A stretch of DNA of 64,000 nt from Bacteroidales bacterium (GCA_017516865.1 JAFXAU010000003.1:11909-75908), one strand, 5' to 3'. Counted from the first letter of the stretch, positions 16,778 to 51,301 are shown. The notes: generated by a model from the sequence alone, not told the origin. Program-made: numbers and translations.

Positions 16778-16783
16778 CATGAT

Positions 16784-18145: not shown

Positions 18146-18146
18146 T

Positions 18147-19907: not shown

Positions 19908-19921
19908 AACACAAAGAGAAA

Positions 19922-20314: not shown

Positions 20315-20316
20315 TC

Positions 20317-22398: not shown

Positions 22399-22413
22399 TC
22401 AATTTACAAAAGT

Positions 22414-22530
22414 ATGGCTATTATAAAACAAGATACGAACAACATCCCCGAACTCCAATCTCCTTTCGAACAGTTAAGAGAGGTTGATGCCGATGGCAAG
22501 GAATGGTGGAACTCATATAATAGGTGCTAA
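22414..22530 (+). pseudogene. 38-codon fragment resembling the N-terminus of DinD/BRO-N-type proteins
   Basis: MAIIKQDTNNIPELQSPFEQLREVDADGKEWWNSYNRC*. The FE.IR..D..G.E.W segment is DinD-like from memory, then the ORF stops prematurely. Confidence 0.3.
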
Positions 22531-22553
22531 CAATGATTTAATAAAAACGACAT

Positions 22554-23684: not shown

Positions 23685-23781
23685 CAATCTGGGAAATTGT
23701 AATCTTGCGAATACTAATCAGCTAGTATATATATAAGCAATAGAATATGGCAAATCGAAGAGAAATACGAATAGCACAGCT

Positions 23782-23874
23782 GAGTTCCTAATCTTTCAGA
23801 TAGAGGGAAAGGAACAGGATGTGGAAGTCTATTACAAGGATAAAACTGTTTGGCAACAAGAAATAGAAAGGGGG
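23782..23874 (+). pseudogene. Short remnant resembling the N-terminus of RhuM-family proteins
   Basis: No start codon. ...EFLIFQIEGKEQDVEVYYKDKTVWQQEIERGII* resembles the RhuM N-terminal I.IYQ.EDG...V....TVWL.Q. Confidence 0.25.
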
Positions 23875-23935
23875 ATTATTTGATTCTAAATATCAAACAT
23901 TTTGATATTTTCGCAAGGATTTTAGAATCATAAGA

Positions 23936-25294: not shown

Positions 25295-25307
25295 TTTGAC
25301 GAAAAAG

Positions 25308-26018
25308 TCACTTCAACATTTTATTGATTTGTTTCTCAGTCGCTTGCGGCAACAATTCGTGTAGATGTTCGGCCATACGTTGATATGATTCTTCGGGGGA
25401 GCGTTGGCATAGACAGGCTGAACGTCCCAATAATCGTTCGGGGGTTGTGAGCAGCGACCAGCCGAATCCATATTCCCGTCCGTGTTTGTCGGTTGGATAG
25501 ACAAAATCCTCGGTGACCAAGTAACACGACATTTGTAGTCGGTTGACGTATGCGTCGAATTTGCCACGCATTTTGGGACCAGTGAAACCGCAGGCCGCCC
25601 GCAGTTCACGGGCTATCATGCTTCCTTGTTCTTGAAGCGTCAGAACTATGGCTTCTTCTATGCTGCCAGGTTCCAATTGGGGATTTTTGCTACGTCGCCA
25701 ATTGTAGAAGTCGAGCCACCAATCAAGACTGATGAATCCTGCCTTGCCGTTGAAAAATTTGCCGTAAACGCAGTTGCCTTCTTTGATTGCCGTGCCTTTC
25801 CACGTCCACAAGGGCCATTCCCAACTGCCGTCGTCGAACTGGATGAAACGACATTCTTCCGCCATCATCCCTTCTGCGCAAAAACCTTGCACGCCGCTTT
25901 CGAGCAACGGCAGAAATCCAATTTGCTGAATGCAGTCTATCAAGTCGGGACAGGAATGAATGCCTTGCCTGTCGGTTGCGTGCATATCTTTGAAATAATT
26001 GTCAAAATAATCGCTCAT
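25308..26018 (-). CDS. Hypothetical protein, possibly AlkZ/YcaQ-related
   Basis: 236-aa Trp-rich sequence (WEWPLWTWKG...LDWWLDFYNWRR). The assignment is from memory of AlkZ-related proteins only. Confidence 0.3.
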   Translation of the reverse strand: MSDYFDNYFKDMHATDRQGIHSCPDLIDCIQQIGFLPLLESGVQGFCAEGMMAEECRFIQFDDGSWEWPLWTWKGTAIKEGNCVYGKFFNGKAGFISLDWWLDFYNWRRSKNPQLEPGSIEEAIVLTLQEQGSMIARELRAACGFTGPKMRGKFDAYVNRLQMSCYLVTEDFVYPTDKHGREYGFGWSLLTTPERLLGRSACLCQRSPEESYQRMAEHLHELLPQATEKQINKMLK

Positions 26019-26042
26019 TTTTTTCGGACTTGATAATGCGTG

Positions 26043-26294
26043 TTAGTTAAGATTCAAACGTTTCTCGCCGTTTTGAATGTAAATTTCCTCGTATTTGAGA
26101 CCTTCTTCGGCTGGCTTGATTTCCACCACGTCGGCAGAAATCTGCTTGGTAAGTTCATCAACAATGGAACGTACATTGCCGGTATAACTATAATATGCCA
26201 CCAGCGTCCTGCCAATTTGTTCCGCATAGACTTTGTTATTCCTTGAACAACAAGTACATAGAATTAAAATCAACAAAAAAGAAAAATATCTCAT
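26043..26294 (-). pseudogene. Truncated lipoprotein flavodoxin (about 83 aa of an expected ~170-190)
   Basis: MRYFSFLLILILCTCC lipobox then LVAYYSYTGNVRSIVDEL...ADVVEIKP (flavodoxin N-terminal half). Terminates early compared with the paralogue at 12008-12595. Confidence 0.4.
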
Positions 26295-26307
26295 AACTAA
26301 GAGAATT

Positions 26308-27015
26308 TTATTTACAACTAAATTCAACTATAGCGCTTACCTTGTCGTTTACCGACAGTGAAACCGTTACGACATCGTCTGTGGTAAAAACCGTAGGGAT
26401 TAGCACTTCGCCATATTTTGTTGCGATTTTATATTCCACCCGAAGACTTTTCACATTAAAATTATCTGGAAGAAGTTCCATTGCCATGCGGATGTAATTC
26501 GCATTGTTCACGTGTCGGTTGTAGTCGATGTCGGATTTCATCACGGGAATAGCGTCGTATTTCACGCCGCCGTCCTTGGGCAACACAATTCGGTGTTCTT
26601 TGTAATCCATTTCCAATTGCGAATCCAAAGCCATTGTTTCGAGCGTTGCCGCGTCAATACGTTTTAGCCGCCCCGTTGCCTTGTCGATAAAAGCTCCCAG
26701 ACTCCACGTTTTGTAGCAGGGATTTCCGTCGGAGTCGTAAATAAACGTGTTGCGATAGCCGAACATTGGTTTCATGTCGTAAACCGACGTTGTTACCGTG
26801 AGATTCTCCTTGTATTGCGGCACACGCATAATTTCCACCTGACGGAATGCCAGCACCTGAGTCATATTTTGGTCGGCAAAATATTGTTTTATGCCCGGCT
26901 CGCTGTCTATCCACAGTTCGGAACAGTCCTGCATCATTTGGAGAGCGGAATAAAGTTTTAGTCGCCCTTCGCTGTTGCAGGTACTTATGGTTACTTTGTG
27001 ATTTAAACTGTACAT
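26308..27015 (-). CDS. Acyl-ACP thioesterase (FatA/B-like double hot-dog)
   Basis: The size and the sequence KVTISTCNSEGRLKLYSALQMMQD...DIDYNRHVNNANYIRMAME match the acyl-ACP thioesterase family. Confidence 0.7.
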   Translation of the reverse strand: MYSLNHKVTISTCNSEGRLKLYSALQMMQDCSELWIDSEPGIKQYFADQNMTQVLAFRQVEIMRVPQYKENLTVTTSVYDMKPMFGYRNTFIYDSDGNPCYKTWSLGAFIDKATGRLKRIDAATLETMALDSQLEMDYKEHRIVLPKDGGVKYDAIPVMKSDIDYNRHVNNANYIRMAMELLPDNFNVKSLRVEYKIATKYGEVLIPTVFTTDDVVTVSLSVNDKVSAIVEFSCK

Positions 27016-27033
27016 TTTTCCTCCGTTTGTTAT

Positions 27034-27921
27034 TTAAGCCGCCCTGTATTCCGTAGGCGTTTTTCCTGTTTTTCGTTTGAAGAAGCGGACAAAATGTTGT
27101 GGATAGCCGAATCCCAGTCGGTCGCTTACTTGAGCTATGCTGAGCGTCTGACTGTTGAGCAGTTCCTTGGCACGGTTTACAATGTGGTCGGCAATGAAAT
27201 CTTGTGCTGTCTTGCCTGTTTCCACTTTTACCAATTCTCCGAAATAGCCAGCTGTGAGGTTGCATTTTTCGGCAAAATATGCCACCGTCGGGATGCCTTG
27301 GGTTTCGGCGTGATTGTCGATATAGTCGTTCAGCAGCGATTCAAATTTCTGTACCGTCACGTGGTTGATTTCCTCACGGGTGATGAACTGGCGGTCGTAG
27401 AAACGCAGGCAGTAGTTCAGCAGCAGTTCTATATTGGAAACAATCAGTTCGCGGCTGTGCTTGTCGATTGCGTGTTGCAGTTCCTGCTGAATCATAGCCA
27501 GCACGCTACGGAAAATCTCGATTTCGCTTGTGGAAAGATGCAGTGCCTCGTTGCTTGAGTAGGAGAAAAACTCATATCGCGAAATTTGCCGTCCCAACTG
27601 CGTGCGAGCTAGAAAATCGGGATGGAAGAGCAATGCCGTCCATTTTGGATTTGGCACTTCGGGATTCGGTTCAATGTGGATTGCTTGTCCAGGGGCGAAT
27701 GAAGTCACAGTCATTTCGTCGAAGTCATATTTTGTGCGGCCATACGAAAGTTTGCAGCCCTTGTTTTCCTTCAGAAACAGAGCATACACACCATAGTGAA
27801 CCAAGCATTCGTCAATGGGCGTTTGCTTGTCGTAGCGAACCACGCTCACAAGCGGATGTAGGGTTTCAAAACCGTAGAAATCGTTAAACTGCTGAACAGT
27901 GTCGAAATGTATTTCGTTCAT
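27034..27921 (-). CDS. AraC-family transcriptional regulator
   Basis: C-terminal dual HTH (...IPTVAYFAEKCNLTAGYFGELVKVETGKTAQDF...LSIAQVSDRLGFGYPQHFVRFFKRKTGKTPTEYR). The ATG at 27921 (MNEIHFDTV) follows the -7 box. Confidence 0.85.
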   Translation of the reverse strand: MNEIHFDTVQQFNDFYGFETLHPLVSVVRYDKQTPIDECLVHYGVYALFLKENKGCKLSYGRTKYDFDEMTVTSFAPGQAIHIEPNPEVPNPKWTALLFHPDFLARTQLGRQISRYEFFSYSSNEALHLSTSEIEIFRSVLAMIQQELQHAIDKHSRELIVSNIELLLNYCLRFYDRQFITREEINHVTVQKFESLLNDYIDNHAETQGIPTVAYFAEKCNLTAGYFGELVKVETGKTAQDFIADHIVNRAKELLNSQTLSIAQVSDRLGFGYPQHFVRFFKRKTGKTPTEYRAA

Positions 27922-27935
27922 TTTCTTTGTTTTTG

Positions 27936-27943
27936 CAAATATA
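27936..27943 (-). promoter_or_regulatory. -7 promoter box (reverse complement TAtaTTTG) for the AraC/thioesterase operon
   Basis: caaatata on the plus strand, 15 nt upstream of the ATG at 27921. Confidence 0.45.
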
Positions 27944-27976
27944 CGGCAAAATGCCAAAATATGCCGATGGACGGAT

Positions 27977-28001
27977 TTCGGAAAGAATTACCAAAATTGA
28001 G
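27977..28001 (-). promoter_or_regulatory. TTCGG-N16-TTGAG copy of the AraC-type direct-repeat motif
   Basis: ttcggaaagaattaccaaaattgag, 41 nt distal to the -7 box. The second half-site is degenerate. Confidence 0.3.
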
Positions 28002-28136
28002 GGTTACATTTTAATGCTCAATGCCATCTTCAAATGTCCGTTGTTTTGTGTGGAGTGTGACATTTCATTATTTATTTGGGGGCTTGTTTTATATAGAAAC
28101 ACACTATAAGATTTATTCCACTTTTCCCAAAATTTC

Positions 28137-28144
28137 TATATTTG
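28137..28144 (+). promoter_or_regulatory. -7 promoter box (TAtaTTTG) for the AlbA_2-domain gene
   Basis: tatatttg lies 63 nt upstream of the ATG at 28207. Confidence 0.4.
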
Positions 28145-28206
28145 CAAAAGTATAAACGTAAAATAAAAACAACGATTTGAAATAAAATTCAACTTAAACA
28201 CCCATA

Positions 28207-29577
28207 ATGATAGAAACAAACCGCATAGAATTTAAACGAGAACTGACTCCCGACCTTGATTTGGAGAAGGAGGTTGTGGCCTTTCTCAATTACCATGAAG
28301 GAGGAATGATTTATATTGGTATTGATGATGACGGGCTCCCTGTCGGCGTGAAGGACATAGATGGGGATATGCTTAAAATCAAGGACCGCATTCGTACAGG
28401 AATATCTCCATCGCCCATGGGGTTGTTTGATGTCAAGGTCGAAGAAATCGACAATATTTCTGTCATTAAGATTTTTATCGCCAGTGGAAGCGATAAACCT
28501 TATTACAAAACTCGTTATGGTCTGTCGGAGAAGGGATGTTTTATGCGTGTTGGTACGGCAGCCGAACCTATGACCAACGAGCAGATCGAAGACCTTTTTT
28601 CCCGAAAAGTGCACAACACACTCAAAAATGTAGTTTCGCCGCGACAGGATTTGACTTTTGTTCAGCTAAAAATATACTACACCGAAAAAGGGTTTCAACT
28701 CAACGATAATTTTATCCGTTCACTTGATTTGATGACTGACGACGGGAAATACAATTATGTGGCATATCTACTCGCCGATGAGAATGGTAATTCTATGAAA
28801 TTGGCAAAATATGCAGGCACAGACCGTTACGACCTTATTTCAAACAACGAGTACGGCTATTGCTGCCTGATTACTGCCACAAGGAAAGTGCTTGACAAAC
28901 TTGATGTGGAAAACAAAGTGTCATCGAAAATTACACCGACAAGGCGTATAGACACACCGCAATGGGACAGGTTATCCGTAAGAGAAGCTGTAATAAATGC
29001 TGTTGTCCATAACGATTATATTTATGGAGCACCATCGAAGATTGAACTTTTTTCCGACCGTTTAGAAATCACTTCCATAGGCAGGATTCCGTTAGGTTTG
29101 ACGAAAGATGATTTTTTCAATGGTGTGAGTTTGCCTCGTAACAGGGAACTTATGCGTGTGTTCCGTGATGTAGAAATGGTAGAATCGCTTGGCTCGGGGA
29201 TGAACCGCATTATGCGTACCTATGGACGTGAAAATTTCGAGTTCGGCAACAATTACGTACGTATGATTGTACCGTATCATTGGATTCCAGAAAACGACGA
29301 AGAGGTAAACGAGGAAGTAGAACGTTCTCAGAAAATGGATTCGAAAGTAAAAAATGTCGGAAGTGATGTCGGTAGTTTGTCGGAAGTGCAACTCACTGAT
29401 AGACAAAATAAAATATGCCATATTTTGAAAGAAAATCCCAATGCATCTGCAAAACAAATGTCGGAAGTTTTGTCGGTGGTTCAACGAACTATTGAAAGAG
29501 ACCTTGCTGTTTTACAGCAGAAAGGTGTTATAAAGCATTTTGGCAATACTAGTGGTGGTCATTGGGAATTTTTATAA
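28207..29577 (+). CDS. AlbA_2 (Schlafen-like) + HATPase_c_4-like + wHTH putative DNA-binding regulator (often annotated RecG-like)
   Basis: N-terminal ETNRIEFKRELTPDLDLEKEVVAFLNYHEGGMIYIGIDDDG (AlbA_2 signature). C-terminal LTDRQNKICHILKENPNASAKQMSEVLSVVQRTIERDLAVLQQKG is wHTH-like. Confidence 0.7.
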   Translation: MIETNRIEFKRELTPDLDLEKEVVAFLNYHEGGMIYIGIDDDGLPVGVKDIDGDMLKIKDRIRTGISPSPMGLFDVKVEEIDNISVIKIFIASGSDKPYYKTRYGLSEKGCFMRVGTAAEPMTNEQIEDLFSRKVHNTLKNVVSPRQDLTFVQLKIYYTEKGFQLNDNFIRSLDLMTDDGKYNYVAYLLADENGNSMKLAKYAGTDRYDLISNNEYGYCCLITATRKVLDKLDVENKVSSKITPTRRIDTPQWDRLSVREAVINAVVHNDYIYGAPSKIELFSDRLEITSIGRIPLGLTKDDFFNGVSLPRNRELMRVFRDVEMVESLGSGMNRIMRTYGRENFEFGNNYVRMIVPYHWIPENDEEVNEEVERSQKMDSKVKNVGSDVGSLSEVQLTDRQNKICHILKENPNASAKQMSEVLSVVQRTIERDLAVLQQKGVIKHFGNTSGGHWEFL

Positions 29578-41372: not shown

Positions 41373-41404
41373 AAAGAACTACCGCCATAAGACGATAGTT
41401 CTTT
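41373..41404 (-). terminator. Minus-strand intrinsic terminator ending the cysE transcription unit
   Basis: The minus strand reads aaagaacta-N14-tagttcttt followed by gtttttgt. Confidence 0.5.
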
Positions 41405-41644: not shown

Positions 41645-42538
41645 TTATACTCCAGCCCCGTCGAAAAAGGTTTCCGAAACTGCTTTTTGCTGTACAATCT
41701 TCGAATGCGGCTTCACACTTTCGGTAACCCAAATGTTACCACCAATCACGGTGTCGTGCCCGATTGTAATACGTCCTAAAATCGACGAATTGGAATAAAT
41801 TGTGACATTGTCCTCTATTATCGGGTGGCGCGGGGTGTTCACCGGCTGACCGTTTTCGTTATAGGTAAACTTCTTCGCTCCTAACGTAACGCCCTGATAC
41901 AAAGTGACATGGTTGCCAATTATGCAGGTTTCTCCAATCACCACGCCCGTGCCATGGTCAATTGAAAAATATTCGCCGATTTTGGCTCCGGGATGAATGT
42001 CGATACCCGTCGCCGAATGTGCCATTTCCGTTATGATTCGCGGTAATACGGGAACTTTCAGCTCCAACAGTGCATGTGCCACACGATAGTGGACCATAAC
42101 CTGCACGATGGGATAGCAAAAAATTATCTCGCCGTACGACGTCACGGCAGGGTCGGAATCATACATTGCTTCAATATCGGTATAAAGCACACGTTTTATT
42201 TCGGGAATTTTTTCAAGAAACTGGAGCGTGATTTTTTCCACTTCCTCTACCGTTTTTCCTCCGTTGAAACTATTGAAACTCAGGGAAATCTGTTCCTCAA
42301 GTTCTTTCGCAATTTGTTCCACGTTTATCCCAATGCGGTACATACGGCTATCCTGACTGTTTATTTCGGCACCGAAAAAGCCGGGAAAGAAAATCTGCCT
42401 CAACAGTTCTATAATATGTTTCACAGCGTCAATCGAAGGCAGGCGGCATTCTTTTGCACGCATATTTTTTTCTTTTTCTTCAATGTTGGACAGTATGGCC
42501 ACATTTTTAGCCAAAATTTCTCGTTTATTCATTCTCAT
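41645..42538 (-). CDS. cysE: Serine O-acetyltransferase
   Basis: LbH hexapeptide region (GIDIHPGAKIGEYFSIDHGTGVVIGETCIIGNHVTLYQGVTLG) with a long Bacteroidetes-type N-terminal helical domain. Confidence 0.85.
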   Translation of the reverse strand: MRMNKREILAKNVAILSNIEEKEKNMRAKECRLPSIDAVKHIIELLRQIFFPGFFGAEINSQDSRMYRIGINVEQIAKELEEQISLSFNSFNGGKTVEEVEKITLQFLEKIPEIKRVLYTDIEAMYDSDPAVTSYGEIIFCYPIVQVMVHYRVAHALLELKVPVLPRIITEMAHSATGIDIHPGAKIGEYFSIDHGTGVVIGETCIIGNHVTLYQGVTLGAKKFTYNENGQPVNTPRHPIIEDNVTIYSNSSILGRITIGHDTVIGGNIWVTESVKPHSKIVQQKAVSETFFDGAGV

Positions 42539-42601: not shown

Positions 42602-44218
42602 TTATTTTGTGTTGCCCACAATTCGTCTGAGAGCATCCGTCAGGCGGTCAACTTCCTCGCGGGTGTTATAGACTGCAAACGTGGGACGGACAGACATTTC
42701 GTAGCCCAAGGCACGCAATGCCGGCTGTGCACAATGGTGTCCCGCACGAACGGCAATTCCTTCTTTGTCGAGCATTTGTCCGACTTGAGGAGCAGGAATG
42801 CCGGGAATGTCGAACGAAACCACGCTCACGCGTTTTTGGGGATTTCCCATAAGTGTGATGCCCGGAATGAGTGCGATTTGCTGGCGTGCGTACTCGGTCA
42901 GGTCATGTTCGTGGCGTTCAATATTGTGAATGCCGACACTGCTGACAAAATCAAGAGCGTAGCCCAAACCAATAGCGTCGGCAATGTTAGGCGTGCCTGC
43001 TTCGAAACGGGCAGGAGGTTCGTTGAACTCAGTTTTTTCTATGGTCACATCCTTTATCATATTGCCACCGCCCTGCCACGGGGGAAGTAGTTCCAACGCC
43101 TCTTTCTTGCCGTAAATCACGCCGATTCCCGACGGACCGTATATTTTGTGTCCCGAAAAAACAAAATAGTCGCAATCCATATCCTGCACGTCGATTTTGG
43201 TATGTGCAACCGACTGCGCCCCGTCAATCAGCACGGGAATGTTGTGCGAGTGGGCAATTTTTATGATGGTTTTCACATCGTTGATTGTCCCGAACGTATT
43301 GTTAACGTGACCCACCGAGATGAATTTCGTCCGTGGTGTTATCAGTCGCTCAAGCTCTGGCAAAATCAAGTCACCGTTTTTGTCAATAGGAATCGCCCGT
43401 AGTTCCGCATTGCGTTCCTTGCACACTTGCTGCCACGGCACAATGTTGGCGTGGTGGTCGAGTGTTGACACAATCACGTTGTCGTTCTCCAGCAGATACT
43501 TGCGTCCAAATGTCTGAGCCACAAGGTTGATACCTTCGGTTGTGCCACGAACAAACACGATGTTGTCGGTTGACGGAGCATTGATGAACCGTGCAACTTT
43601 CTCGCGTGCCGCCTCGTACTGGTCGGTAGCCCGTGCGGCAAGCGTGTGTGCTCCTCGGTGAATGTTTGAATAGTCAGTCTTGTAGAAATGGCTGAGACCG
43701 TCAATCACACGCAAGGGTTTTTGTGTGGATGCCCCATTGTCGAACCACACCAAATCTTTCCCGTTCACCTTCTGGTCGAGAATAGGGAACTGCTTCCGAA
43801 TCTCCGTTTGGTCTATCGTATCGGCTTCCTCGTAGTGCAGGTTGCGCACGAGTTCCGTTTCGGGAATGCCAATGCCAAATCCGTTGTCTGTCAGCAGACA
43901 CTTTTTCGAGTCTGGCTCCACATCGTCAGCGGAACGGGAATGCGTGATTTTCGAGGGGGCTTCGTATGTCTGTATATCTTCGCCAAAATACTTCTCCACT
44001 ACACTTTTGAACATTTCGGTTTCGCTTGCCGAAAGTTCACCCGCCAACGGAAACTGGGGCATTTGGAATCCGTCGAAATCAGCTTCGGAAGTCGTGGGAA
44101 CTTGCGCCCGCACCGGATTTTCATCTGGCACGGGGGCGTCGCCGTCGAGTCCAATTTGCGGAATATGTCCCAATTCGGGAATATCTGGTCGAAAATTATC
44201 TAATTCGTTACCGTACAT
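42602..44218 (-). CDS. SufS-type (class V aminotransferase) cysteine desulfurase with a ~135-aa disordered N-terminal extension; predicted encapsulin cargo
   Basis: PLP-Lys motif FSGHKIYGPSG and catalytic-Cys loop RAGHHCAQP. The N-terminal 1-135 is Pro/Asp/Glu-rich with no fold signature. The start overlaps the shell gene stop (TAATG). Confidence 0.85.
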   Translation of the reverse strand: MYGNELDNFRPDIPELGHIPQIGLDGDAPVPDENPVRAQVPTTSEADFDGFQMPQFPLAGELSASETEMFKSVVEKYFGEDIQTYEAPSKITHSRSADDVEPDSKKCLLTDNGFGIGIPETELVRNLHYEEADTIDQTEIRKQFPILDQKVNGKDLVWFDNGASTQKPLRVIDGLSHFYKTDYSNIHRGAHTLAARATDQYEAAREKVARFINAPSTDNIVFVRGTTEGINLVAQTFGRKYLLENDNVIVSTLDHHANIVPWQQVCKERNAELRAIPIDKNGDLILPELERLITPRTKFISVGHVNNTFGTINDVKTIIKIAHSHNIPVLIDGAQSVAHTKIDVQDMDCDYFVFSGHKIYGPSGIGVIYGKKEALELLPPWQGGGNMIKDVTIEKTEFNEPPARFEAGTPNIADAIGLGYALDFVSSVGIHNIERHEHDLTEYARQQIALIPGITLMGNPQKRVSVVSFDIPGIPAPQVGQMLDKEGIAVRAGHHCAQPALRALGYEMSVRPTFAVYNTREEVDRLTDALRRIVGNTK

Positions 44219-45657
44219 TATTTTTCAATTTGATTTCTATGTTGATAATCATGATAATAGCCAACTTCCACGTTTTCAAGAACAGCTATGGCATCGTCGG
44301 TAAGACTTGCAAGACTGAAATATTTTGTAAGCAAGTAGCTTGCCACGCCATATTGGTCTAATCCCATAAGCCGTGCCGACAAAGAAGGGGCAATTTCGCC
44401 AGGAATGCCTGCCTGATGCAGACCAACAACTCCTTGTTCCTTTTCGCCCGTGCGAACCAAAATAATATCGGTTGTGCCAACGCCGCGACTCGTCAGATAT
44501 TGGCCTTTAATCTCGACTTTGTCAGACGGAATGATTGGCACGCCACGCCACGTAATCACTTTTGTTCCAAACAAATCAATCGATACAGGCGGAACACCGC
44601 GCCACGTACATTCACGCTCGAAAGCGGCTATGGCACGTGGATGAGCGATGAAAAACGCCGGTTCTTTCCAAACGAGCGACAAAAGTTCGTCAAGGTCGTC
44701 GGGAGTCGGCGCACCATAGCGGGCGCTGATTTTGTAACCGGGAGCGGCCTGTGCCAACAAACCGAACTTTTTGTTGTTAATGAGTTCCCATTCCTGACGT
44801 TCCTTGATACTTTCGATTGAAAGACGCAACTGCTGTTCCAGCTGATTGTAAGGAGCGTTGAACAAATCGCTTACACGAGTATGTACACGGACAACCGTCT
44901 GTAATGTGTTGAGAGAATATTCCGTCGGATTTTCTTCGTAGTCGATATACGTTTCGGGAATAATGTTGTCCTCTTCGTGACCAGAAACAAGGTCGATGTG
45001 CTTTTCGCCGTGGTCGTTCACCGTTGCTTTCAGACGAAGATGGTCGTCAACCGCATTGTTGAACTGTTCGCGGAAATTCGGCTTTTCGTCGATTAATTTT
45101 TCAAGAGCGGGAGTTTCCAACTGGAGAAATGTGGAATTTGTGAGCGAACGAACCGTAACGGTTGAGTCTGCGGCACTAAGCAAATCGGATTCGCCAAAAT
45201 ATTCGCCTGCGCCCAACAATGCAATACGAAGTTCCTCGCCGTGGATTCCCGTGCTGATTACTTCTGCCTGTCCGCTTGCGACAATAAAGAATTTTTGTTT
45301 GTCCTTGCCTTGTGTGATAAGATTTTTACCACGTTTTACCTCTACGGGGACGAAATTCCGTGCAAGGTCGGCTACAATTTCCTGGTCAATGCTTGAAAAA
45401 AGCGGAATTTGACGCAAATCTTTCGCCGTGAAACTTGCCACACCGTCGAAATATTGAATAGCGATTCGGTCGGCTTTTTTCAGTTCCACCTTCGTGCGGT
45501 TTACACGGTATGTACCACTTTCCACCTGCGTCCAAGGTAATAATTTCAAGAGAAGACGAGGAGTAATTGACCCCATCTGCGGGGGTGTTTTGGTTGTGTT
45601 TGCAAGTTTTCGAGCCGTTGCTGTCGTAATACTGCGTTGAATGTTACTGTCTGCCAT
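44218..45657 (-). CDS. Family 2 encapsulin nanocompartment shell protein with an inserted cNMP-binding-like domain (2B architecture)
   Basis: N-arm ARKLANTTKTPPQMGSITPRLLLKLLPWTQVESGTYRVN. C-terminal GAPTPDDLDELLSLVWKEPAFFIAHPRAIAAFERECTWRGVPP...SLASLTDDAIAVLENVEV closely matches my recollection of SrpI-type family 2 shells. Residues ~78-200 are CRP-like (FGE). Confidence 0.85.
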   Translation of the reverse strand: MADSNIQRSITTATARKLANTTKTPPQMGSITPRLLLKLLPWTQVESGTYRVNRTKVELKKADRIAIQYFDGVASFTAKDLRQIPLFSSIDQEIVADLARNFVPVEVKRGKNLITQGKDKQKFFIVASGQAEVISTGIHGEELRIALLGAGEYFGESDLLSAADSTVTVRSLTNSTFLQLETPALEKLIDEKPNFREQFNNAVDDHLRLKATVNDHGEKHIDLVSGHEEDNIIPETYIDYEENPTEYSLNTLQTVVRVHTRVSDLFNAPYNQLEQQLRLSIESIKERQEWELINNKKFGLLAQAAPGYKISARYGAPTPDDLDELLSLVWKEPAFFIAHPRAIAAFERECTWRGVPPVSIDLFGTKVITWRGVPIIPSDKVEIKGQYLTSRGVGTTDIILVRTGEKEQGVVGLHQAGIPGEIAPSLSARLMGLDQYGVASYLLTKYFSLASLTDDAIAVLENVEVGYYHDYQHRNQIEK

Positions 45658-45687: not shown

Positions 45688-46086
45688 TTATCTTAATTGT
45701 ATTTTTTCTTTGACTTCGCCGCCAACAATCGAAAAAGCGTTGAATACAGGTCTTTCGTCGGCAAGCGAGAGAATGAAATAGAGAATGTTCGGGTCGAACG
45801 CAAGCCGTATGTCTTCCGCCGACGGACGCGACGGCGAGGCGGGGTGGCTGTGCCAATTCCCTACAATCACCAATCCGTTTTGCCGTGCATATTTAACCGC
45901 CGCGAACTGCTCCTTCGGGTCGAAACTGAAATGCTCCTCCGACTGGTCGATGTTACGCATAGGATAGCTCACCGTGGCCGTTTTATTGTCGGGTCCCAAC
46001 AGATAGCCGCACGATTCAATCGGTGCGTCGTTCCGTGCTTGTGCCAACAGCGACTGGTACGCTTCTTCCGTTATTGTTATTTCCAT
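45688..46086 (-). CDS. JAMM/MPN+ (Mov34) metalloprotease, Mec+/HcyD/QbsD-like
   Basis: The upstream Glu (PIESCGYLLG) and HSHPASPSRPSAED (H-x-H-x7-S-x2-D) are present. 132 aa. Confidence 0.85.
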   Translation of the reverse strand: MEITITEEAYQSLLAQARNDAPIESCGYLLGPDNKTATVSYPMRNIDQSEEHFSFDPKEQFAAVKYARQNGLVIVGNWHSHPASPSRPSAEDIRLAFDPNILYFILSLADERPVFNAFSIVGGEVKEKIQLR

Positions 46087-46088
46087 CT

Positions 46089-46310
46089 TTATTTCCGAAT
46101 TGTAACTTTATGAATATTTCCTTCCACTTTGCTGATATCCAGCACCTTAAAACCCTGTTCGGTTGCCGAGCGTGGTACATTGTTGAGTGGTTCGCCATCG
46201 GTAAGCAACACTTCGAGAATGTCGCCTTCGGCTATTTGAGCCAATTTCAGTTTGGTCTTTACAAACGTCATTGGGCAATGTTCCTTTGTTATGTCTAACG
46301 TGTGGGTCAT
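46089..46310 (-). CDS. TusA/SirA-like sulfur carrier protein
   Basis: 73 aa with an N-terminal LDITKEHCPMTFVKTK (Cys-Pro motif of the TusA family). Confidence 0.75.
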   Translation of the reverse strand: MTHTLDITKEHCPMTFVKTKLKLAQIAEGDILEVLLTDGEPLNNVPRSATEQGFKVLDISKVEGNIHKVTIRK

Positions 46311-46350: not shown

Positions 46351-46830
46351 CTAAATGAACATGGTTCTTCCGCCTTCGGACAATTCCAAAAATGTTGCGA
46401 CACCCAGCGTGTCTTTCACTTCGTGGATAAAGTCAGATTGTTGAAGACCGAGTACGTGCATTGCCATTTCGCAAGCGTACAAGTTCACGCCGAGGGCTGT
46501 AGCCGCCTCCACAAGTTCCTCGAGCGTCGCCACGTTGTTTTTACGCATCAGCGAGCGGAAGATTTTTGGACCTATGCCACAAAAATTGAATCGGCTTGTA
46601 GGCGTCACATGCAAGCCGCCCATCATAAATCCGAACATTTTCGTGAGCCAGTTTCCGCCCACAAACGAGCGTCCTTTCTTTTGTTTTATGGCGTCGAGCC
46701 CCCAAAACGTAAAGAAAATGTTTACTTCGTAACCTACCGCGGCCGCTCCAGTCGCAAGCGTAAATACAGCCGTCAGTTTGTCAAATTCGCCAGAAAAGGC
46801 AATTAAGGAAAGTTTCTTTGTTTCTGCCAT
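46351..46830 (-). CDS. DsrE/DsrF/DrsH-like sulfur-relay family protein
   Basis: KKLSLIAFSGEFDKLTAVFTLATGAAAVGYEVNIFFTFWGL...ACEMAMHVLG...ATFLE matches the family pattern from memory. The ATG at 46830 is preferred. Confidence 0.65.
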   Translation of the reverse strand: MAETKKLSLIAFSGEFDKLTAVFTLATGAAAVGYEVNIFFTFWGLDAIKQKKGRSFVGGNWLTKMFGFMMGGLHVTPTSRFNFCGIGPKIFRSLMRKNNVATLEELVEAATALGVNLYACEMAMHVLGLQQSDFIHEVKDTLGVATFLELSEGGRTMFI

Positions 46831-46838
46831 AGTGATAT

Positions 46839-47654
46839 TTATTTTTTGTGAGAAGCAAGGTCGCACGTACCTTGTTCATAATCAATTAATTGAGTTATTG
46901 TTGGATGTTCACCGCAAAGAGAACAATTTTCACGTCGTTTTACGTTTATTTTTCTGAAATCCATTGTTTTTGCGTTGAATGTCAGCAATTTGTCGGTCAA
47001 CAATTCGCCAACGCCTGTTATGTATTTCAATGCTTCGGCGGCTTGGATTGTGCCCAACATTCCCGCAATTGCGCCCAGCACTCCCGCCTGCGAGCAAGTG
47101 GGAACCGCATTTGGTGGCGGCGGTGTTTTAAACATGCAACGGTAGCAAGCGTGTCCCGGAACGTATGTGAACGTTTGCCCTTCAAAACGGAGTATTCCAC
47201 CGTGGCTAAAAGGTTTTCCTGCCATTACGCACGCATCGTTAATGAGAAATTTCACAGGGAAATTATCGGTTCCGTCAATCACAAAATCGTAGTCTTTTAT
47301 AATGTCGAGAGCGTTGCTTGCCCATAGGAAATCCTTGTGGGTAACCACTTTCACGTGTGGATTTATTGCATTCATCGTCTCCTTTGCCGATTCAACCTTC
47401 GGTTTCCCGACATCGGGTGTCGTGTGGATAATTTGTCGCTGTAGATTGCTTAAATCAACCACATCGCCGTCAACTATTCCTATGGTTCCAATTCCTGCCG
47501 CAGCCAAGTACATGGCAACCGGGGCACCCAATCCGCCTGCTCCCACGACAAGAACTTTTGCCTCGCGTATTTTTTCCTGACCCTCGACGCCCACATCTTT
47601 AAGCAATATGTGACGGGAATAGCGGGTCAATTCTTCTTCCGTAAAATCAAACAT
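46839..47654 (-). CDS. MoeB/ThiF/HesA-type E1-like adenylyltransferase (no rhodanese domain)
   Basis: RYSRHILL...VLVVGAGGLGAP nucleotide loop, DLSNLQRQ, Zn motifs CYRC and CSLC, and conserved PTCSQAGVLG. Confidence 0.85.
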   Translation of the reverse strand: MFDFTEEELTRYSRHILLKDVGVEGQEKIREAKVLVVGAGGLGAPVAMYLAAAGIGTIGIVDGDVVDLSNLQRQIIHTTPDVGKPKVESAKETMNAINPHVKVVTHKDFLWASNALDIIKDYDFVIDGTDNFPVKFLINDACVMAGKPFSHGGILRFEGQTFTYVPGHACYRCMFKTPPPPNAVPTCSQAGVLGAIAGMLGTIQAAEALKYITGVGELLTDKLLTFNAKTMDFRKINVKRRENCSLCGEHPTITQLIDYEQGTCDLASHKK

Positions 47655-47691: not shown

Positions 47692-47904
47692 TTACTTGCT
47701 TCCGCCTCCCATAAAGTACAGAAAATCAACGGAATCACCTTCGTTAAGAATGGTCGTGTCGAAATCCTCTCTATCGACAAATTCTTCGTTTACCTGCACA
47801 CTGACCATTTCTGGCTGTGCCACGTTATTTTGTTTTATCAGCTCCGCCACGGAAATGGGGAGTTTTACTTCTTGATTTTCACCGTTTACTGTAATTGTCG
47901 CCAT
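47692..47904 (-). CDS. ThiS/MoaD-family ubiquitin-like sulfur carrier with a C-terminal GG followed by extra residues (…MGGGSK)
   Basis: 70 aa. MATITVNGENQEV...ILNEGDSVDFLYFMGGGSK* is a ThiS-like beta-grasp pattern with the diglycine not at the terminus. Confidence 0.75.
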   Translation of the reverse strand: MATITVNGENQEVKLPISVAELIKQNNVAQPEMVSVQVNEEFVDREDFDTTILNEGDSVDFLYFMGGGSK

Positions 47905-47925: not shown

Positions 47926-48856
47926 TTACTTACTAAATAATGTTGTTGACAGGTACCGTTCGCCAGAATCGGGCAAAAGAACCACAATTCGTTTTCCCTT
48001 GTTTTCGGGGCGCTTTGCAATTTCAATCGCGGCGTGCAAAGCAGCACCCGACGAAATCCCCACTAAAATACCTTCGCGTCGTGAAATGTAGCGTGCCGCC
48101 TCAAAAGCATCATCGTCGGCCACCCGGAATATTTCGTCGTACACTCGAGTGTTGAGAATTTTGGGAATAAATCCCGCTCCTATACCCTGTAGTTTGTGTG
48201 GTCCCGCCTTGTGTCCCGACAACACGGCACTTCCCAGTGGTTCCACTGCATGCCTTAGCGTCGGGATTTTGTTTTTTCAGCGTCTCTCCAATACCAGTAA
48301 TTGTTCCGCCTGTTCCGACTCCAGCGACAAAAAAGTCAATCTGCCCGTCGGTGTCGGCTATAATTTCTTGTGCCGTCGTTTCGATGTGGGCTTCGGGATT
48401 GGCAGGATTTTCGAACTGTTGCGGAATGAATGCATTGCCAATCTCCGCCGCCAATTCCTTTGCTTTCCTAATAGATCCTGGCATTCCCTCGTAAGCGGGC
48501 GTGAGCACCAGTTCCGCACCCAACGCCTTCAGCAGAGAACGACGTTCTTTGCTCATGGAGTCGGGCATCGTAAGAATCAATCTGTAGCCACGAGTGGCGG
48601 CAACCAAAGCCAGCCCGATGCCAGTGTTGCCGCTCGTTGGTTCTATAATTACCGTTCGGCTGTCAATCAACCCTTTTTTCTCGGCTTTTTCTATAAGAAA
48701 CAGCCCAACGCGGTCCTTCACACTTCGTCCCGGATTCAAAAACTCAAGTTTCGCCACAATTTGCGCTTTTGTTTTCTGCTCCTTCTCGATTTTCGAAAGT
48801 TCCAAAAGTGGCGTACCACCTATCAATTGTGTTATATCGCCTGCTATCTTTGCCAT
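47926..48856 (-). pseudogene. cysK: Cysteine synthase (O-acetylserine sulfhydrylase) CysK/CysM-like, split by a frameshift near 48247-48251
   Basis: The N-part (48856 downwards) has SVKDR (PLP Lys), TSGNTG and GVGTGGTITG up to ...KKQNPDAKA. The C-part ([12 protein letters not shown]...GISSGAAL...) continues in another frame (ORF 47926-48246). Confidence 0.8.
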
Positions 48857-48887
48857 TTTCTTAGACCTTTGTTTTACAATCACGATG

Positions 48888-48895
48888 CAAATATA
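48888..48895 (-). promoter_or_regulatory. -7 promoter box (reverse complement TAtaTTTG) for the sulfur-relay/encapsulin operon
   Basis: caaatata on the plus strand, 32 nt upstream of the cysK ATG at 48856. Confidence 0.45.
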
Positions 48896-48948
48896 AAACA
48901 ATTAACATACAAACCTACTATGTTAATAGGTTATTTTTAAAAATTTTT

Positions 48949-48989: not shown

Positions 48990-50171
48990 ATGGAAAAACA
49001 AACAAAAACAGTACGCACGTCGCAAAAGATTTCCGACGCATACGGAGCACTCAACATGCCAGTTTATAATTCGGCCGCCTACGGCTTTCCTTCGGCAAAA
49101 GCAATGGCAGACGCTTTTGTGGGCAGAACCGATTCTCCAACGTATTCACGTGTGTCTAATCCTACGGTTGCATATTTTGAAGAACGGGTTGCCCAACTCA
49201 GTGGAGCAAAGCACGTTTTTGCCTTTAACTCGGGTATGGCGGCGATTAGCTGCACGCTTTTTGCACTCGCTGCGAGCGGAAAAAACATCGTTACTTCGGC
49301 ACATCTGTTCGGGAACACCGTTTCGTTATTAACGAACACTTTGGGACGGTTCGGAGTTGAAACACGCTTTGTCGATTTGCTCGACAGCGAGGCGGTTGCA
49401 AATGCAATAGACGACAACACGGCCTGCGTGTTTCTTGAAATCATCACCAATCCGCAACTCGAGGTTGTTGACATTCAGAGTCTTTCGTCAATCACCAAAA
49501 AGAAAAACATTCCGCTTGTCGCCGACACCACTATTATTCCGTTCACGCAATTTAGCGCGGAAGCGTTAGGAGTTGACATTGAAGTGCTTTCGAGCACAAA
49601 ATACATTTCGGGCGGAGCGACGACATTGGGCGGCTTGGTGCTTGACTATGGAAATTTCCCGCAATTATACCGTTATATGAAGTTCGAACTTCTTTATAAC
49701 ATTGGTAGTTATATGACGCCTCAGGTCGCTTTTATGCAGACACTTGGCCTTGAAACATTGGATATGCGTTACCGCACGCAGGCAAACAACGCCCTCGAAC
49801 TTGCCCGAAGGTTGAAACAAGTTCCCGAAATTATAGATGTAAATTACGTCGGACTGAGCGACAACGTGTTCCACACGCTGGCAAAAGCTCAATTTGGAGG
49901 AACATTTGGAGCAATGCTCACCATTGATTTGGAAGACAAACAGCATGCGTTTGCTTTTATCGATAATTTGAAACTTATCAGTCGCGCAACCAATCTTTTC
50001 GACAGCAAATCGCTGGCTATCCACCCTGCATCAACAATATTTGGCGCTTTTGCAGGTTCACAGCGTCGCGCTATGAACGTACGCGACAACACCGTGCGAC
50101 TCAGCATAGGATTGGAAGACGTGAAAGATTTATATGACGATATTGTTCAGGCACTAAAAGGATCTATTTAA
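48990..50171 (+). CDS. Cys/Met-metabolism PLP enzyme (O-acetylhomoserine sulfhydrylase MetY-like / gamma-lyase family)
   Basis: YSRVSNPT, SGMAAI and PLP-Lys motif LSSTKYISG. 393 aa. Confidence 0.75.
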   Translation: MEKQTKTVRTSQKISDAYGALNMPVYNSAAYGFPSAKAMADAFVGRTDSPTYSRVSNPTVAYFEERVAQLSGAKHVFAFNSGMAAISCTLFALAASGKNIVTSAHLFGNTVSLLTNTLGRFGVETRFVDLLDSEAVANAIDDNTACVFLEIITNPQLEVVDIQSLSSITKKKNIPLVADTTIIPFTQFSAEALGVDIEVLSSTKYISGGATTLGGLVLDYGNFPQLYRYMKFELLYNIGSYMTPQVAFMQTLGLETLDMRYRTQANNALELARRLKQVPEIIDVNYVGLSDNVFHTLAKAQFGGTFGAMLTIDLEDKQHAFAFIDNLKLISRATNLFDSKSLAIHPASTIFGAFAGSQRRAMNVRDNTVRLSIGLEDVKDLYDDIVQALKGSI

Positions 50172-50341: not shown

Positions 50342-51301
50342 ATGAAGAATCTCAAGATGTACGAGCCGAGCGACAAGATGATAACGCTTATAAAGGACAA
50401 CTACAGCGTGTTGCAGGCTCTGGGCTCATTCGGCATCAATCTTGGCTTTGGCGACAAAACCGTAAACGAAACCTGCGAACTAAACGGTGTTGACACATAC
50501 ACATTTCTTGCCGTGGTCAATCTCCAACTGAACAACGTGGGCAATTTCGAAGACGATGAAAAAATCAGCGTTCCCACATTGCTACGCTATTTGAAGGCAA
50601 GTCACGCCTATTATCTTGATTTTCAGCTCCCTTTCATTCGTCGCGAACTTGCGGAAAGCATTGATGAAAACGACAAAATGGGCAGACTAATACTCAAATT
50701 TTATGATGACTACGCGCACGAAGTGCAACAGCACATGAAATACGAGGATAAAACGCTGTTCCCCTACGTTCAGTCGCTTATTGAAGGCCGTCCCGCAAGC
50801 AACTACACAATAGAAACGTTTTCGAAACATCACGAACAGACCGACAAGAAATTGCGTGAATTGAAGTTGATGATTATCAAATATTTACCTACCGACGCAA
50901 AACGTAATAATTTACTTACGTCTACGCTGTACGACATCTACAACAACGAAGAATGGCTCCGTCATCACGCCGATGTCGAAGACTTTATATTTACGCCAGC
51001 CATCCGCCGTATGGAACACCAACACAAACAAAATGACGTTACGAAGAACATCACCACCATGATTCGTAACTCCGACACCGAGCAAAGCGAACCAATCTCC
51101 GAACGCGAAAAGGATGTCATCATTGGCGTTGTGCAAGGCTTGCAAAATAAGGAAATCGCCGACAAACTGTGCATTTCGGTCAACACCGTCATTACCCATA
51201 GACGAAACATTGCCAGAAAACTGCAAATTCACTCGCCATCTGGACTTACCATTTATGCCATCGTCAACGGACTGGTTGATATTTCAAGCGTGAAACTATA
51301 A
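50342..51301 (+). CDS. LuxR-type HTH regulator with a hemerythrin/RIC-like N-terminal sensor region
   Basis: HEVQQHMKYEDKTLFPYV, HHEQTDKKL and RHHADVEDFIF form an H/E hemerythrin-like pattern. C-terminal EREKDVIIGVVQGLQNKEIADKLCISVNTVITHRRNI is a LuxR HTH. Confidence 0.6.
   Translation: MKNLKMYEPSDKMITLIKDNYSVLQALGSFGINLGFGDKTVNETCELNGVDTYTFLAVVNLQLNNVGNFEDDEKISVPTLLRYLKASHAYYLDFQLPFIRRELAESIDENDKMGRLILKFYDDYAHEVQQHMKYEDKTLFPYVQSLIEGRPASNYTIETFSKHHEQTDKKLRELKLMIIKYLPTDAKRNNLLTSTLYDIYNNEEWLRHHADVEDFIFTPAIRRMEHQHKQNDVTKNITTMIRNSDTEQSEPISEREKDVIIGVVQGLQNKEIADKLCISVNTVITHRRNIARKLQIHSPSGLTIYAIVNGLVDISSVKL

Follow-up and report, generated by a model that had tools for sequence, protein, structure and literature searches.

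The gene at positions 44218 to 45657 on the minus strand of a 64,000-nucleotide stretch of Bacteroidales DNA (GCA_017516865.1 JAFXAU010000003.1:11909-75908; the whole stretch is called the window below) codes for the shell of a family 2B encapsulin of the single-component kind, an ordinary member of a catalogued type. It adjoins a gene for a SufS-type cysteine desulfurase (CyD), the presumed cargo. Inserted in the E-loop of the shell protein is a domain with the cyclic-nucleotide-binding (CNB) fold in which serine stands in place of the phosphate-clamping arginine and aspartate in place of the alanine that accommodates the phosphate. The core reading, a 2B shell of the desulfurase type with an outside domain that binds no cyclic nucleotide monophosphates (cNMPs), commands good, though not complete, confidence. 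The present analysis established what the gene encodes, the arrangement of its domains, the residues of the cassette, the conservation of and selection on the protein, and the genes linked to it; it goes beyond the literature searched in the clade-dependent replacement of the arginine, the covariation of positions 158 and 165, and the linkage of the shell to TusA, DsrE2 and ThiS genes.

The open reading frame (ORF) begins with ATG and encodes 479 residues, and the start codon is taken to be right because homologues span residues 1 to 479. In searches with profile hidden Markov models, the protein scores above the cut-offs of the NCBIfam model for 2B shells (NF041163, 561.7 bits against a cut-off of 400), of the Pfam SrpI-like family (PF19307, residues 209-466, 374.6 bits against 22.8, E 2e-112) and of Pfam cNMP_binding (PF00027, residues 105-191, 58.4 bits against 27.5). 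A domain of the last family, inserted in the E-loop, is what separates 2B from 2A shells in the scheme of Andreas & Giessen 2021. The best sequence relatives in the PDB are the 2B shells of Streptomyces lydicus and S. griseus (9BJE, E 8e-112; 9BIX; 9BHU), followed by the 2A desulfurase shells SrpI (6X8M, E 6e-104), Mmp1 and that of Acinetobacter, all at E ~1e-100 or better. The 2A shells match the query in two pieces, residues 7-68 and 223-474, leaving an insertion of ~166 residues (~57-222) at the E-loop, in which a short beta-beta-alpha subdomain (57-80) is followed by the CNB-fold domain (81-200) and then a linker.

An AlphaFold model built from 108 homologues is confident both in the inserted domain (predicted local distance difference test score, pLDDT, of 78-90 over residues 60-215) and in the HK97 core. 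The subdomain ahead of the CNB domain is modelled, with good pLDDT, as two strands (68-70 and 73-75) and a helix (78-81); a beta-beta-alpha subdomain in this place, described as metal-binding, is known from published 2B shells (Andreas et al. 2024, PMC11550324). A Foldseek search of this model against the PDB returned, in order, 9BHU (E 1.7e-30), the 2A shells (8WOL, 8T6R, 6X8M) and canonical CNB domains, so that the HK97 fold and a cNMP-like beta-barrel were both found. The HK97 part is 45-57% identical to solved 2A and 2B shells in this search, and the matches to CNB domains (CAP/CRP, PKG, PKA, HCN, MloK1) have root-mean-square deviations of 2.2-2.7 A and target TM-scores of 0.75-0.81. The original prediction placed the protein among family 2B shells and assigned it the N-arm of family 2, an HK97-like C-terminal region and, at residues 78-200 (nt 45058-45426), an insertion of CRP/cNMP type; each of these assignments is borne out. 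Because the shell gene is present in a single copy in the window (tblastn), the system is a single-component one; a two-component system was rejected on the absence of a second shell gene. The idea of a prophage capsid remnant was likewise dismissed: the protein passes the curated 2B equivalog, its CyD partner is conserved, and no phage genes surround the locus.

The equivalent of the phosphate-binding cassette had been located exactly by the original prediction, and its sequence, FGESDLLSAADSTVTVRS (residues 154-171), equals the PKA cassette FGELALIYGTPRAATVKA in length. Three alignment routes, namely an ungapped comparison, MAFFT, and HMMER against sites A and B of PKA RI-alpha, agree that the Pro-Arg pair of PKA falls on Asp164-Ser165 and not on Ala163-Asp164. 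The absence of the arginine therefore stands as first proposed, whereas the proposed Ala-Asp counterpart was off by one residue, and by none of the three routes does an arginine lie at or beside the cassette arginine position. Gly155-Glu156 is the retained canonical Gly-Glu pair; Asp158 occupies the position of the canonical alanine (A202/A326 of PKA RI-alpha), Asp164 that of the canonical proline, and Ser165 that of the arginine itself (R209/R333 of PKA RI-alpha, R82 of CAP). Arg170 is an ordinary basic residue of beta-7 (R87 in CAP, lysine in PKA). A relocated arginine was considered and rejected, since the conserved Arg144 (beta-5) and Arg170 (beta-7) are as frequent in relatives that keep the cassette arginine.

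Of the features of a functional CNB domain, the shell domain possesses the Gly-Glu pair within an eight-stranded beta-barrel (G155 and E156 are conserved, and the fold matches agree). The phosphate-clamping arginine is replaced by serine, rarely alanine, across the clade, and the small residue at PKA 202/326 that leaves room for the phosphate is Asp158. Because the clamp is Ser165 and the phosphate-accommodating alanine is Asp158, canonical binding of cAMP or cGMP by this domain is predicted from its residues to be impossible.

Two points that had been put forward as noteworthy at the outset, the loss of the arginine and the pairing of a 2B shell with a desulfurase, were found to be already described. 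Arginine loss has been reported as near-universal in 2B shells (PMC11550324; 2026 geosmin preprint; repeated in 2025, PMC12407261), and Sg Enc showed no binding of cAMP by differential scanning fluorimetry, activity assays or cryo-electron microscopy (cryo-EM), other ligands being proposed (PMC11550324). The two-fold pores lie beneath the 2B domains, which fail to bind cAMP (PMC11550324; 2026 geosmin preprint), and no ligand of a 2B outside domain had been identified as of July 2026 (2026 geosmin preprint). The suggestion that the present domain binds something other than cAMP or cGMP, or is purely structural, agrees with this current view of the field. As to the pairing, Andreas & Giessen 2021 recorded desulfurase cargo in 1281 family 2A and 199 family 2B operons, the latter in 9 phyla with a distribution like that of the 2A set, which includes Bacteroidetes (PMC8346489), and desulfurases were later assigned to ~9% of 2B systems (Andreas et al. 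2024, PMC11550324). By these surveys the pairing is common and described, an outcome that the original prediction had itself named as contradicting it.

What takes the place of the arginine depends on the clade: tryptophan in actinobacterial-type shells, serine in the present clade, while the arginine itself is kept in a sister desulfurase clade. In an alignment of 108 sequences (47-99% identity), the position holds Ser in 66, Arg in 34 and Ala in 4. From 55% identity to the query upwards, all sequences carry Ser or, in a few cases, Ala, mostly in a Pro-Ser pair, and they span Bacteroidota, Leptospiraceae and Planctomycetota; the loss is thus conserved within the clade, and no arginine is restored by the alignment. 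A neighbouring group, at 47-54% identity, retains the full canonical cassette FGE-[IM]-A-L-[LI]-x3-P-R-T-A-T-V, and one of its members, from Omnitrophota, carries the NCBI name of a family 2B shell. More distant, actinobacterial-type representatives have Trp. Arg-type shells also adjoin desulfurases, as at loci L081 (8001-9422) and L084 (8001-9419), and the generalisation that essentially all 2B shells lack the arginine therefore fails in the desulfurase branch. By their cassettes, these Arg-type desulfurase 2B shells are candidates for real cNMP binding. The Arg-type clade is sizeable (L081, L084, proteins P0271-P0298 and others), with the cassette FGEIALL...PRTATV.

The serine or alanine replacement is accompanied by a change at position 158, which is Ala or Ser in all 44 Arg-type sequences and Asp or Glu in ~160 of 176 Ser/Ala-type sequences; Glu158 is combined with Ser165 in 26 relatives. 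When only representatives below 70% identity are counted, Ala or Ser stands at 158 in 23 of 23 Arg-types and Asp or Glu in 6 of ~15 Arg-less ones, a set that takes in some misaligned Trp-type sequences. Because the sequences are related, the number of independent events at 158 and 165 is small (about three lineages). The positions that separate Arg- from Ser-types (D119, D/E158, S165, V167, L185 and L209) are clustered round the cassette. On a neighbour-joining tree of the HK97 part, a crude sketch that carries no support values, the Arg-types are paraphyletic and the Ser-types fall into at least two clades; the paraphyly makes the Arg-type probably ancestral. The same tree shows 2A-length shells, which have no insertion, interleaved with 2B shells, suggesting repeated gain or loss of the CNB-fold domain. 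Adjacent pairs of 2B shell genes, forming two-component desulfurase systems, occur in Planctomicrobium (L082, 8001-10970) and Leptospiraceae (L083, 6521-9440); all four have Ser-type cassettes, one of them with Gly at 158 instead of Asp or Glu.

Relatives of the shell were found in more than 544 species-level genomes (contigs, one genome per species), among which the closest loci belong to rumen Bacteroidales metagenome-assembled genomes (MAGs) at 97% identity. A word-indexed search gave at least 7997 related protein clusters, the top 120 of which are 76-99% identical to the shell and bear names from Paludibacteraceae, Salinivirgaceae, Prevotella, Bacteroidaceae, Parabacteroides, Tannerellaceae and Dysgonomonadaceae. 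Some 2B homologues are long (P0305, 701 aa; P0121, 848 aa; P0125, 617 aa; ~480 aa is usual), P0305 having an extra PF13385 (Laminin_G_3-like) domain and P0121 being longer by ~370 residues at the C-terminus; either fused shells or errors of gene calling could account for them.

Across 192 distinct clade members, the N-arm has a mean column entropy of 0.32 with 59% of its columns invariant, and its ratio of nonsynonymous to synonymous substitution (dN/dS) is 0.04. In the CNB domain, F154, G155, E156, S165 (entropy 0.1), V169 and scattered other residues are fixed despite the variability of their surroundings, and F195 and F199 in the C-helix region are conserved in the clade. Pairwise Nei-Gojobori estimates from 76 gap-free genes give a dN/dS of 0.069 for the inserted domain and 0.031 for the HK97 part. 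Purifying selection on the inserted domain is strong, if roughly twice as loose as on the shell wall; because of this selection and the fixation of cassette residues across phyla, the domain is not decaying.

These data bear directly on the possibility that the domain has no small-molecule ligand at all and acts as a structural lid or spacer, partly covering the two-fold pores and stabilising the shell, its conserved residues serving the fold and the interfaces with the HK97 surface or a neighbouring domain. Such a role would fit the failure to find a ligand for any 2B domain, or to see one in cryo-EM maps (PMC11550324; 2026 preprint), the standing of the domain as the most variable region of the protein (reported also in PMC12407261), and the conservation of FGE and of the beta-barrel glycines G129, G151 and G155 in all cassette types, as expected of residues that keep the fold. 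It fits less well with the location of the clade-separating D119, D/E158, S165 and V167, which cluster in and round the cassette and are fixed across three phyla, with the coupling of the Arg-to-Ser to the Ala-to-Asp/Glu change, a pattern unexpected from relaxed drift, or with the low dN/dS. On balance, a purely structural domain is considered rather unlikely, if far from negligible.

The gene next to that of the shell, whose ATG overlaps the shell TAA by one base (TAATG), encodes a desulfurase that scores 543.8 bits with the sufS model TIGR01979 (cut-off 475), has its Aminotran_5 domain at residues 157-526 and keeps intact both the pyridoxal-phosphate lysine motif SGHK (355) and the catalytic-cysteine loop GHHC (493). 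Its N-terminal extension of ~110-150 residues is acidic, proline-rich, length-variable and poorly conserved among 73 orthologues, and both composition and low conservation point to disorder. The stretch GFGIGIPE at 113-120, just ahead of the catalytic domain, is conserved, and the extension holds a weak ...KYF... island. This character agrees with the definition of the SrpI cargo-loading domain (PMC8049743). An adjacent cargo gene with a disordered terminal extension is also a mark of 2B shell loci, and CyD has both properties. Linkage was counted over 80 species-level loci that contain a shell relative (one genome per species), and in 74 of these CyD adjoins the shell gene. The desulfurase neighbour in a Bacteroidota genome, as originally noticed, is thus a SufS-type next gene with a variable N-terminal extension, the closest loci being those of the rumen Bacteroidales MAGs. 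By analogy with known systems, the shell most likely encloses this cysteine desulfurase.

On the minus strand, the genes run from upstream to downstream in the order cysK, ThiS-like, E1, DsrE2-like, TusA, JAB, shell, CyD and serine O-acetyltransferase (SAT), followed by a hairpin; their coordinates, together with those of the shell regions and of a divergent O-acetylhomoserine/O-succinylhomoserine sulfhydrylase (OAHS) family gene, are collected in Table 1.

Table 1. Coordinates in the window of the encapsulin shell gene, its regions and the linked genes, with the basis of each assignment.
Feature	Position	Strand	Basis
Family 2B encapsulin shell gene, 479 aa	44218..45657	-	NF041163, PF19307, PF00027, PDB and fold matches
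N-arm, residues 1-56	45490..45657	-	Alignment to SrpI and Mmp1 N-termini, per-stretch E ~1e-10
E-loop insertion, residues ~57-222	44992..45489	-	Bounds from 2A-shell alignment
HK97-like (SrpI-like) shell-forming part, residues 209-466	44260..45033	-	PF19307 E 2e-112
Phosphate-binding-cassette equivalent FGESDLLSAADSTVTVRS, residues 154-171	45145..45198	-	Coordinate mapping, PKA RI-alpha alignment
SufS-type cysteine desulfurase (CyD), 538 aa, presumed cargo	42602..44218	-	TIGR01979, Aminotran_5
Serine O-acetyltransferase (SAT, CysE/EpsC type), last gene of unit	41645..42538	-	NF041874 150.8 bits (cut-off 150); TIGR01172 E 4e-47
Terminator-like hairpin, 14 pairs then T-run, downstream of SAT	41373..41404	-	Consensus pattern only
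JAB/JAMM metallopeptidase, 132 aa, intact motif HSHPASPSRPSAED	45688..46086	-	PF14464 88.8 bits
TusA/SirA sulfur carrier, 73 aa, Cys12 in CPM motif	46089..46310	-	PF01206 78.8 bits (cut-off 28.6)
DsrE2-like sulfur-relay protein (DrsE_2 family)	46351..46866	-	PF13686 136.9 bits
ThiF/MoeB-type E1 adenylyltransferase, 271 aa, no rhodanese domain	46839..47654	-	PF00899 283.6 bits; GAGGLG, two CxxC
ThiS-like sulfur carrier, 70 aa, C-terminus ...MGGGSK	47692..47904	-	PF02597 49 bits
cysK (O-acetylserine sulfhydrylase), frameshifted near 48245-48250	47926..48901	-	Two ORFs, frames -1 and -2
OAHS family enzyme, divergent from cluster	48990..50171	+	PF01053 326.9 bits

The last gene of the unit, SAT, is a known accessory of desulfurase encapsulin operons (PMC10836720). 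The TusA ORF lies in what appears to be an intergenic gap, and the true start of the DsrE2-like protein may be the internal Met13. The Gly-Gly of the ThiS-like carrier is capped by two extra residues (Ser-Lys), and the presence of such a capped carrier together with a JAB protein with an intact JAMM motif in one unit suggests, by sequence features, C-terminal trimming before thiocarboxylation. At the cysK junction, where relatives have K-V-V-AVEPLG, only 4 of the expected 6 nt are present in the window (GCAT in GCATGCA), a 2-nt deletion; because 68 related loci carry an intact gene, the split is a real pseudogene or an assembly error. A blastn comparison of the frameshift region with relatives gave no match at such divergence, and the case was resolved at the protein level.

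Among the scanned ORFs of the window there is no rhodanese. No Rfam family matches at the gathering threshold in the 64 kb, leaving riboswitch or other RNA control of the cluster unsupported, and the number of sigma-70-like sites (23, against 15.8 +/- 4.0 expected) is uninformative, Bacteroidota promoters differing from that consensus. Beside the cluster, and divergent from it, lies a gene (50342-51301, plus strand) for a fusion of a di-iron, RIC-like hemerythrin with a LuxR/GerE DNA-binding domain; in ~22 of the 80 loci a weak homologue (29-40% identity) is encoded close to the cluster. The fusion protein may regulate the sulfur genes in response to redox state or oxygen.

Of the genes linked to the shell, TusA is found in 75 of the 80 loci, DsrE2 in 73, JAB and E1 in 65 each, ThiS in 64, CysK in ~64, OAHS in 55 and SAT in 15. 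Gene order is shuffled between lineages, and DsrE2 often immediately precedes the shell gene. The order CysK-ThiS-DsrE2-TusA-Enc-CyD, for instance, is found in Bacteroidota locus L085 (68% identity), where a gene also stands in the place of the window's TusA. The Leptospiraceae locus L083 has SAT and two shell genes, the Planctomicrobium locus L082 has CysK, two shell genes and a rhodanese, and the Arg-type loci L081 and L084 consist of Enc and CyD with no extra genes. Neighbourhoods of ThiS, JAB, E1, SirA and OAHS genes were described in 2006, with an E1 that has no rhodanese domain and with SirA/TusA thought to be its stand-in (PMC1779556). No paper linking encapsulins with thiocarboxylate carriers or DsrE was found in the literature searched.

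From these components a sulfur compartment with a dedicated outlet can be proposed, in which published homologues supply the features of assembly, loading of the cargo, storage of sulfur and placement of the domain on the outside. Going by the solved family 2 shells, 60 copies of the shell protein would assemble into a T=1 shell, with the HK97-like part forming the wall and the CNB-fold domain of the E-loop standing outside, over the two-fold axes. The translationally coupled CyD would be loaded into the lumen via its disordered N-terminal extension and would there convert L-cysteine to alanine and sulfane sulfur that is kept inside, as for the Acinetobacter 2A system. The external domain would set the openness of the two-fold pores, acting most likely either as a sensor of some ligand that is not a cyclic nucleotide or as a fixed lid. 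The conserved, 2A-like N-arm suggests closed or closable two-fold pores, which Andreas et al. had speculated for desulfurase-type 2B shells (PMC11550324). Persulfide or stored sulfur would then pass to TusA/DsrE2, JAB would trim the Ser-Lys cap before E1 makes the ThiS thiocarboxylate, and OAHS and CysK would use the latter for homocysteine and cysteine. The likely output in Bacteroidales would thus be cysteine-derived or stored sulfur passed to homocysteine and cysteine synthesis; gating of the pores by a ligand and the hand-over from TusA/DsrE2 to ThiS are steps that we infer.

Several observations weigh against this account. CyD falls below the cut-off of NF041166, the model for 2A cargo (690.5 against 800 bits), with profile positions 213-623, the catalytic domain, alone being matched, and neither of the loading motifs published for 2A cargo, LARLANEFFS and AASPYYFLDG, can be recognised in the CyD extension. 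The model of the whole protomer is weak (predicted TM-score 0.39) and its extended arms are poor, which is to be expected when a capsid protomer is modelled on its own. Variability is highest in the CNB domain, whose mean column entropy is 1.01 against 0.30 in the HK97 part, and the conservation of FGE could serve folding alone. In the window, the cysK gene that would use the sulfur is frameshifted. Assembly, loading, sulfur storage and ligand binding are, for this shell, predictions, and no experimentally characterised desulfurase-type 2B shell was found in the literature searched.

Gene linkage, moreover, is no proof of direct sulfur hand-over. TusA, DsrE2, ThiS, E1, JAB, CysK and OAHS may be merely a co-located sulfur regulon, with the encapsulin alone detoxifying cysteine or storing sulfur in a compartment like that proposed for 2A systems and with no dedicated carrier hand-over. 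Non-Bacteroidota loci that lack these genes are in keeping with such an arrangement (L081 and L084 with Enc and CyD only, L083 with SAT, L082 with rhodanese), as is the existence of ThiS-E1-JAB-OAHS clusters without encapsulins (PMC1779556). The linkage nevertheless persists in 64-75 of the 80 species-level genomes despite the shuffled order. Further, rhodanese is the proposed sulfur acceptor in 2A operons (PMC10836720), and with none among the scanned ORFs of the window the persulfide carriers TusA/DsrE2 could fill that role. Mere co-location thus appears an unlikely explanation, though one to be taken seriously.

A bolder reading of the domain draws on the regulatory subunits of trypanosomatid PKA. 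There, the changes A202 to E311 and R209 to T318 switch TbPKAR from cAMP to inosine, guanosine and adenosine, the glutamate binding the ribose 3' and 5' hydroxyls and clashing with the cyclic phosphate; reversion restores the cyclic-nucleotide response (PMC10959531). By analogy, the domain of the shell would be a ribose or nucleoside sensor through which a nucleoside-like metabolite gates the compartment, its acidic residue binding ribose hydroxyls and excluding the cyclic phosphate and a small polar residue replacing the arginine. The retained Gly-Glu pair, together with Asp158 and Ser165 at the very positions of the two TbPKAR changes, argues for such a sensor, as do the covariation of 158 and 165 described above and the presence of the converted TbPKAR mutant 6H4G among the fold matches. 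The analogy, however, extends to two positions only; the acidic residue is Asp and not Glu, one methylene shorter; the capping tyrosine and alpha-D lid of the kinetoplastid proteins have no identified counterpart in the shell domain; and the independent changes are few (about three lineages), with Asp or Glu at 158 in only 6 of ~15 Arg-less representatives below 70% identity. The trypanosome parallel is therefore a lead and not a result, and a nucleoside sensor is judged improbable.

Combining this idea with the proposed sulfur outlet gives the most far-reaching version, in which a sensor for a nucleoside or ribose ligand, re-tooled as in trypanosome PKA, would gate the pores of a sulfur store from which TusA/DsrE2 and ThiS draw; the chance that both halves hold together is put slightly lower still. 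If it were true, the canonical-cassette sister clade would contain the first truly cNMP-gated encapsulins. Binding of cAMP or cGMP in a non-canonical way is very improbable, even though the domain scores above the Pfam cNMP_binding cut-off and its closest solved sequence relatives are the CNB domains of PKA and PKG (E ~1e-15), nearer than those of actinobacterial 2B shells, since the arginine is missing, an acidic side chain occupies the cyclic-phosphate site, Arg-less CNB domains are unresponsive to cAMP and two 2B shells gave negative results (PMC11550324; 2026 preprint). The probability left over for a ligand of the domain falls to other small molecules.

The desulfurase-type 2B reading draws its value from the lead it gives on two questions, what the 2B outside domain binds and how sulfur is retrieved from a desulfurase compartment. 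Retrieval has so far been guessed to proceed via rhodaneses (PMC10836720), and the TusA/DsrE2/ThiS/E1/JAB set, tightly linked in hundreds of rumen and gut Bacteroidales genomes, supplies a defined candidate route. Given the abundance of these bacteria in ruminants, the system may bear on the rumen economy of cysteine, methionine and sulfide.

Elsewhere in the window, a low-GC stretch (~14516-29577, down to 0.33) contains a defence island with type I restriction-modification methylase and specificity subunits, an AAA_15/AAA_21 ATPase, a GmrSD endonuclease and a Fic-HTH protein, and further on a Schlafen/AlbA_2-HATPase protein. A 735-aa fusion of a GT4 glycosyltransferase with a radical-SAM/SPASM domain (5379-7586, plus strand) sits in a polysaccharide-biosynthesis stretch with epimerases and a carbamoyltransferase. 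The 64 kb contain no tRNA genes.

Among characterised systems, the shell bears closest resemblance to Sg Enc (9BHU) and to Sl-Enc1/2 of S. lydicus (9BJE, 9BIX), which share its HK97 protomer with a CNB domain in the E-loop and likewise lack the cassette arginine. The cargo of the Streptomyces 2B shells is a terpene cyclase or comes from a xylulose-kinase operon, whereas the present locus has a desulfurase; they have Trp at the arginine position, where Ser is found here in a loop one residue shorter. The present N-arm is strongly conserved and 2A-like in comparison with theirs, and the CNB domain is nearer in sequence to those of PKA and PKG than to the Streptomyces 2B domains.

In cargo and metabolic setting, the locus resembles the 2A desulfurase encapsulins, namely SrpI of Synechococcus elongatus (6X8M), the A. 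baumannii shell (8T6R) and Mmp1 of Mycobacterium (8WOL). These share the SufS-type CyD cargo class with a disordered N-terminus, the SAT accessory, an HK97 part that is 49-57% identical, and placement in sulfur-metabolism loci; one such 2A encapsulin stores S0 (PMC10836720). Unlike the present shell, 2A shells have no CNB-fold insertion, and the CyD extension here is shorter than that of the 2A cargo and shows no recognisable copy of the published motifs. The published desulfurase operon types consist of Enc and CD with or without rhodanese and with or without SAT (PMC10836720), whereas here the scanned ORFs include no rhodanese and TusA, DsrE2, ThiS, E1, JAB, CysK and OAHS are linked instead. 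The desulfurase 2B operons of Andreas & Giessen 2021, with a 2B shell and a CyD with a disordered N-terminus, are the class to which the present locus belongs. In the literature searched, that class appears in genome surveys only, with no structure, ligand data or TusA/DsrE2/ThiS context.

Two further comparisons concern the parts rather than the whole. The 'ribose-binding cassette' of TbPKAR (6FLO) and TcPKAR (6HYI) has the same fold and the same paired changes as the shell domain, with Gly-Glu kept, Ala changed to an acidic residue and Arg to a small polar one; the trypanosomatid proteins, however, have Glu and are eukaryotic kinase regulators, whereas the present protein has Asp and is capsid-like. 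The sulfur-transfer genes resemble types 4c/4e of Iyer, Burroughs & Aravind 2006, with which they share a capped ThiS-like carrier, JAB, a rhodanese-less E1 with SirA/TusA, cysteine synthase and OAHS. The sulfate-reduction genes of type 4e are replaced in the present cluster by the encapsulated desulfurase and the DsrE2-like protein, which together are the probable source of sulfur. Similar thiocarboxylate systems are CysO-MoeZ-Mec-CysM of Mycobacterium and HcyS-HcyF-HcyD-MetY of Wolinella.

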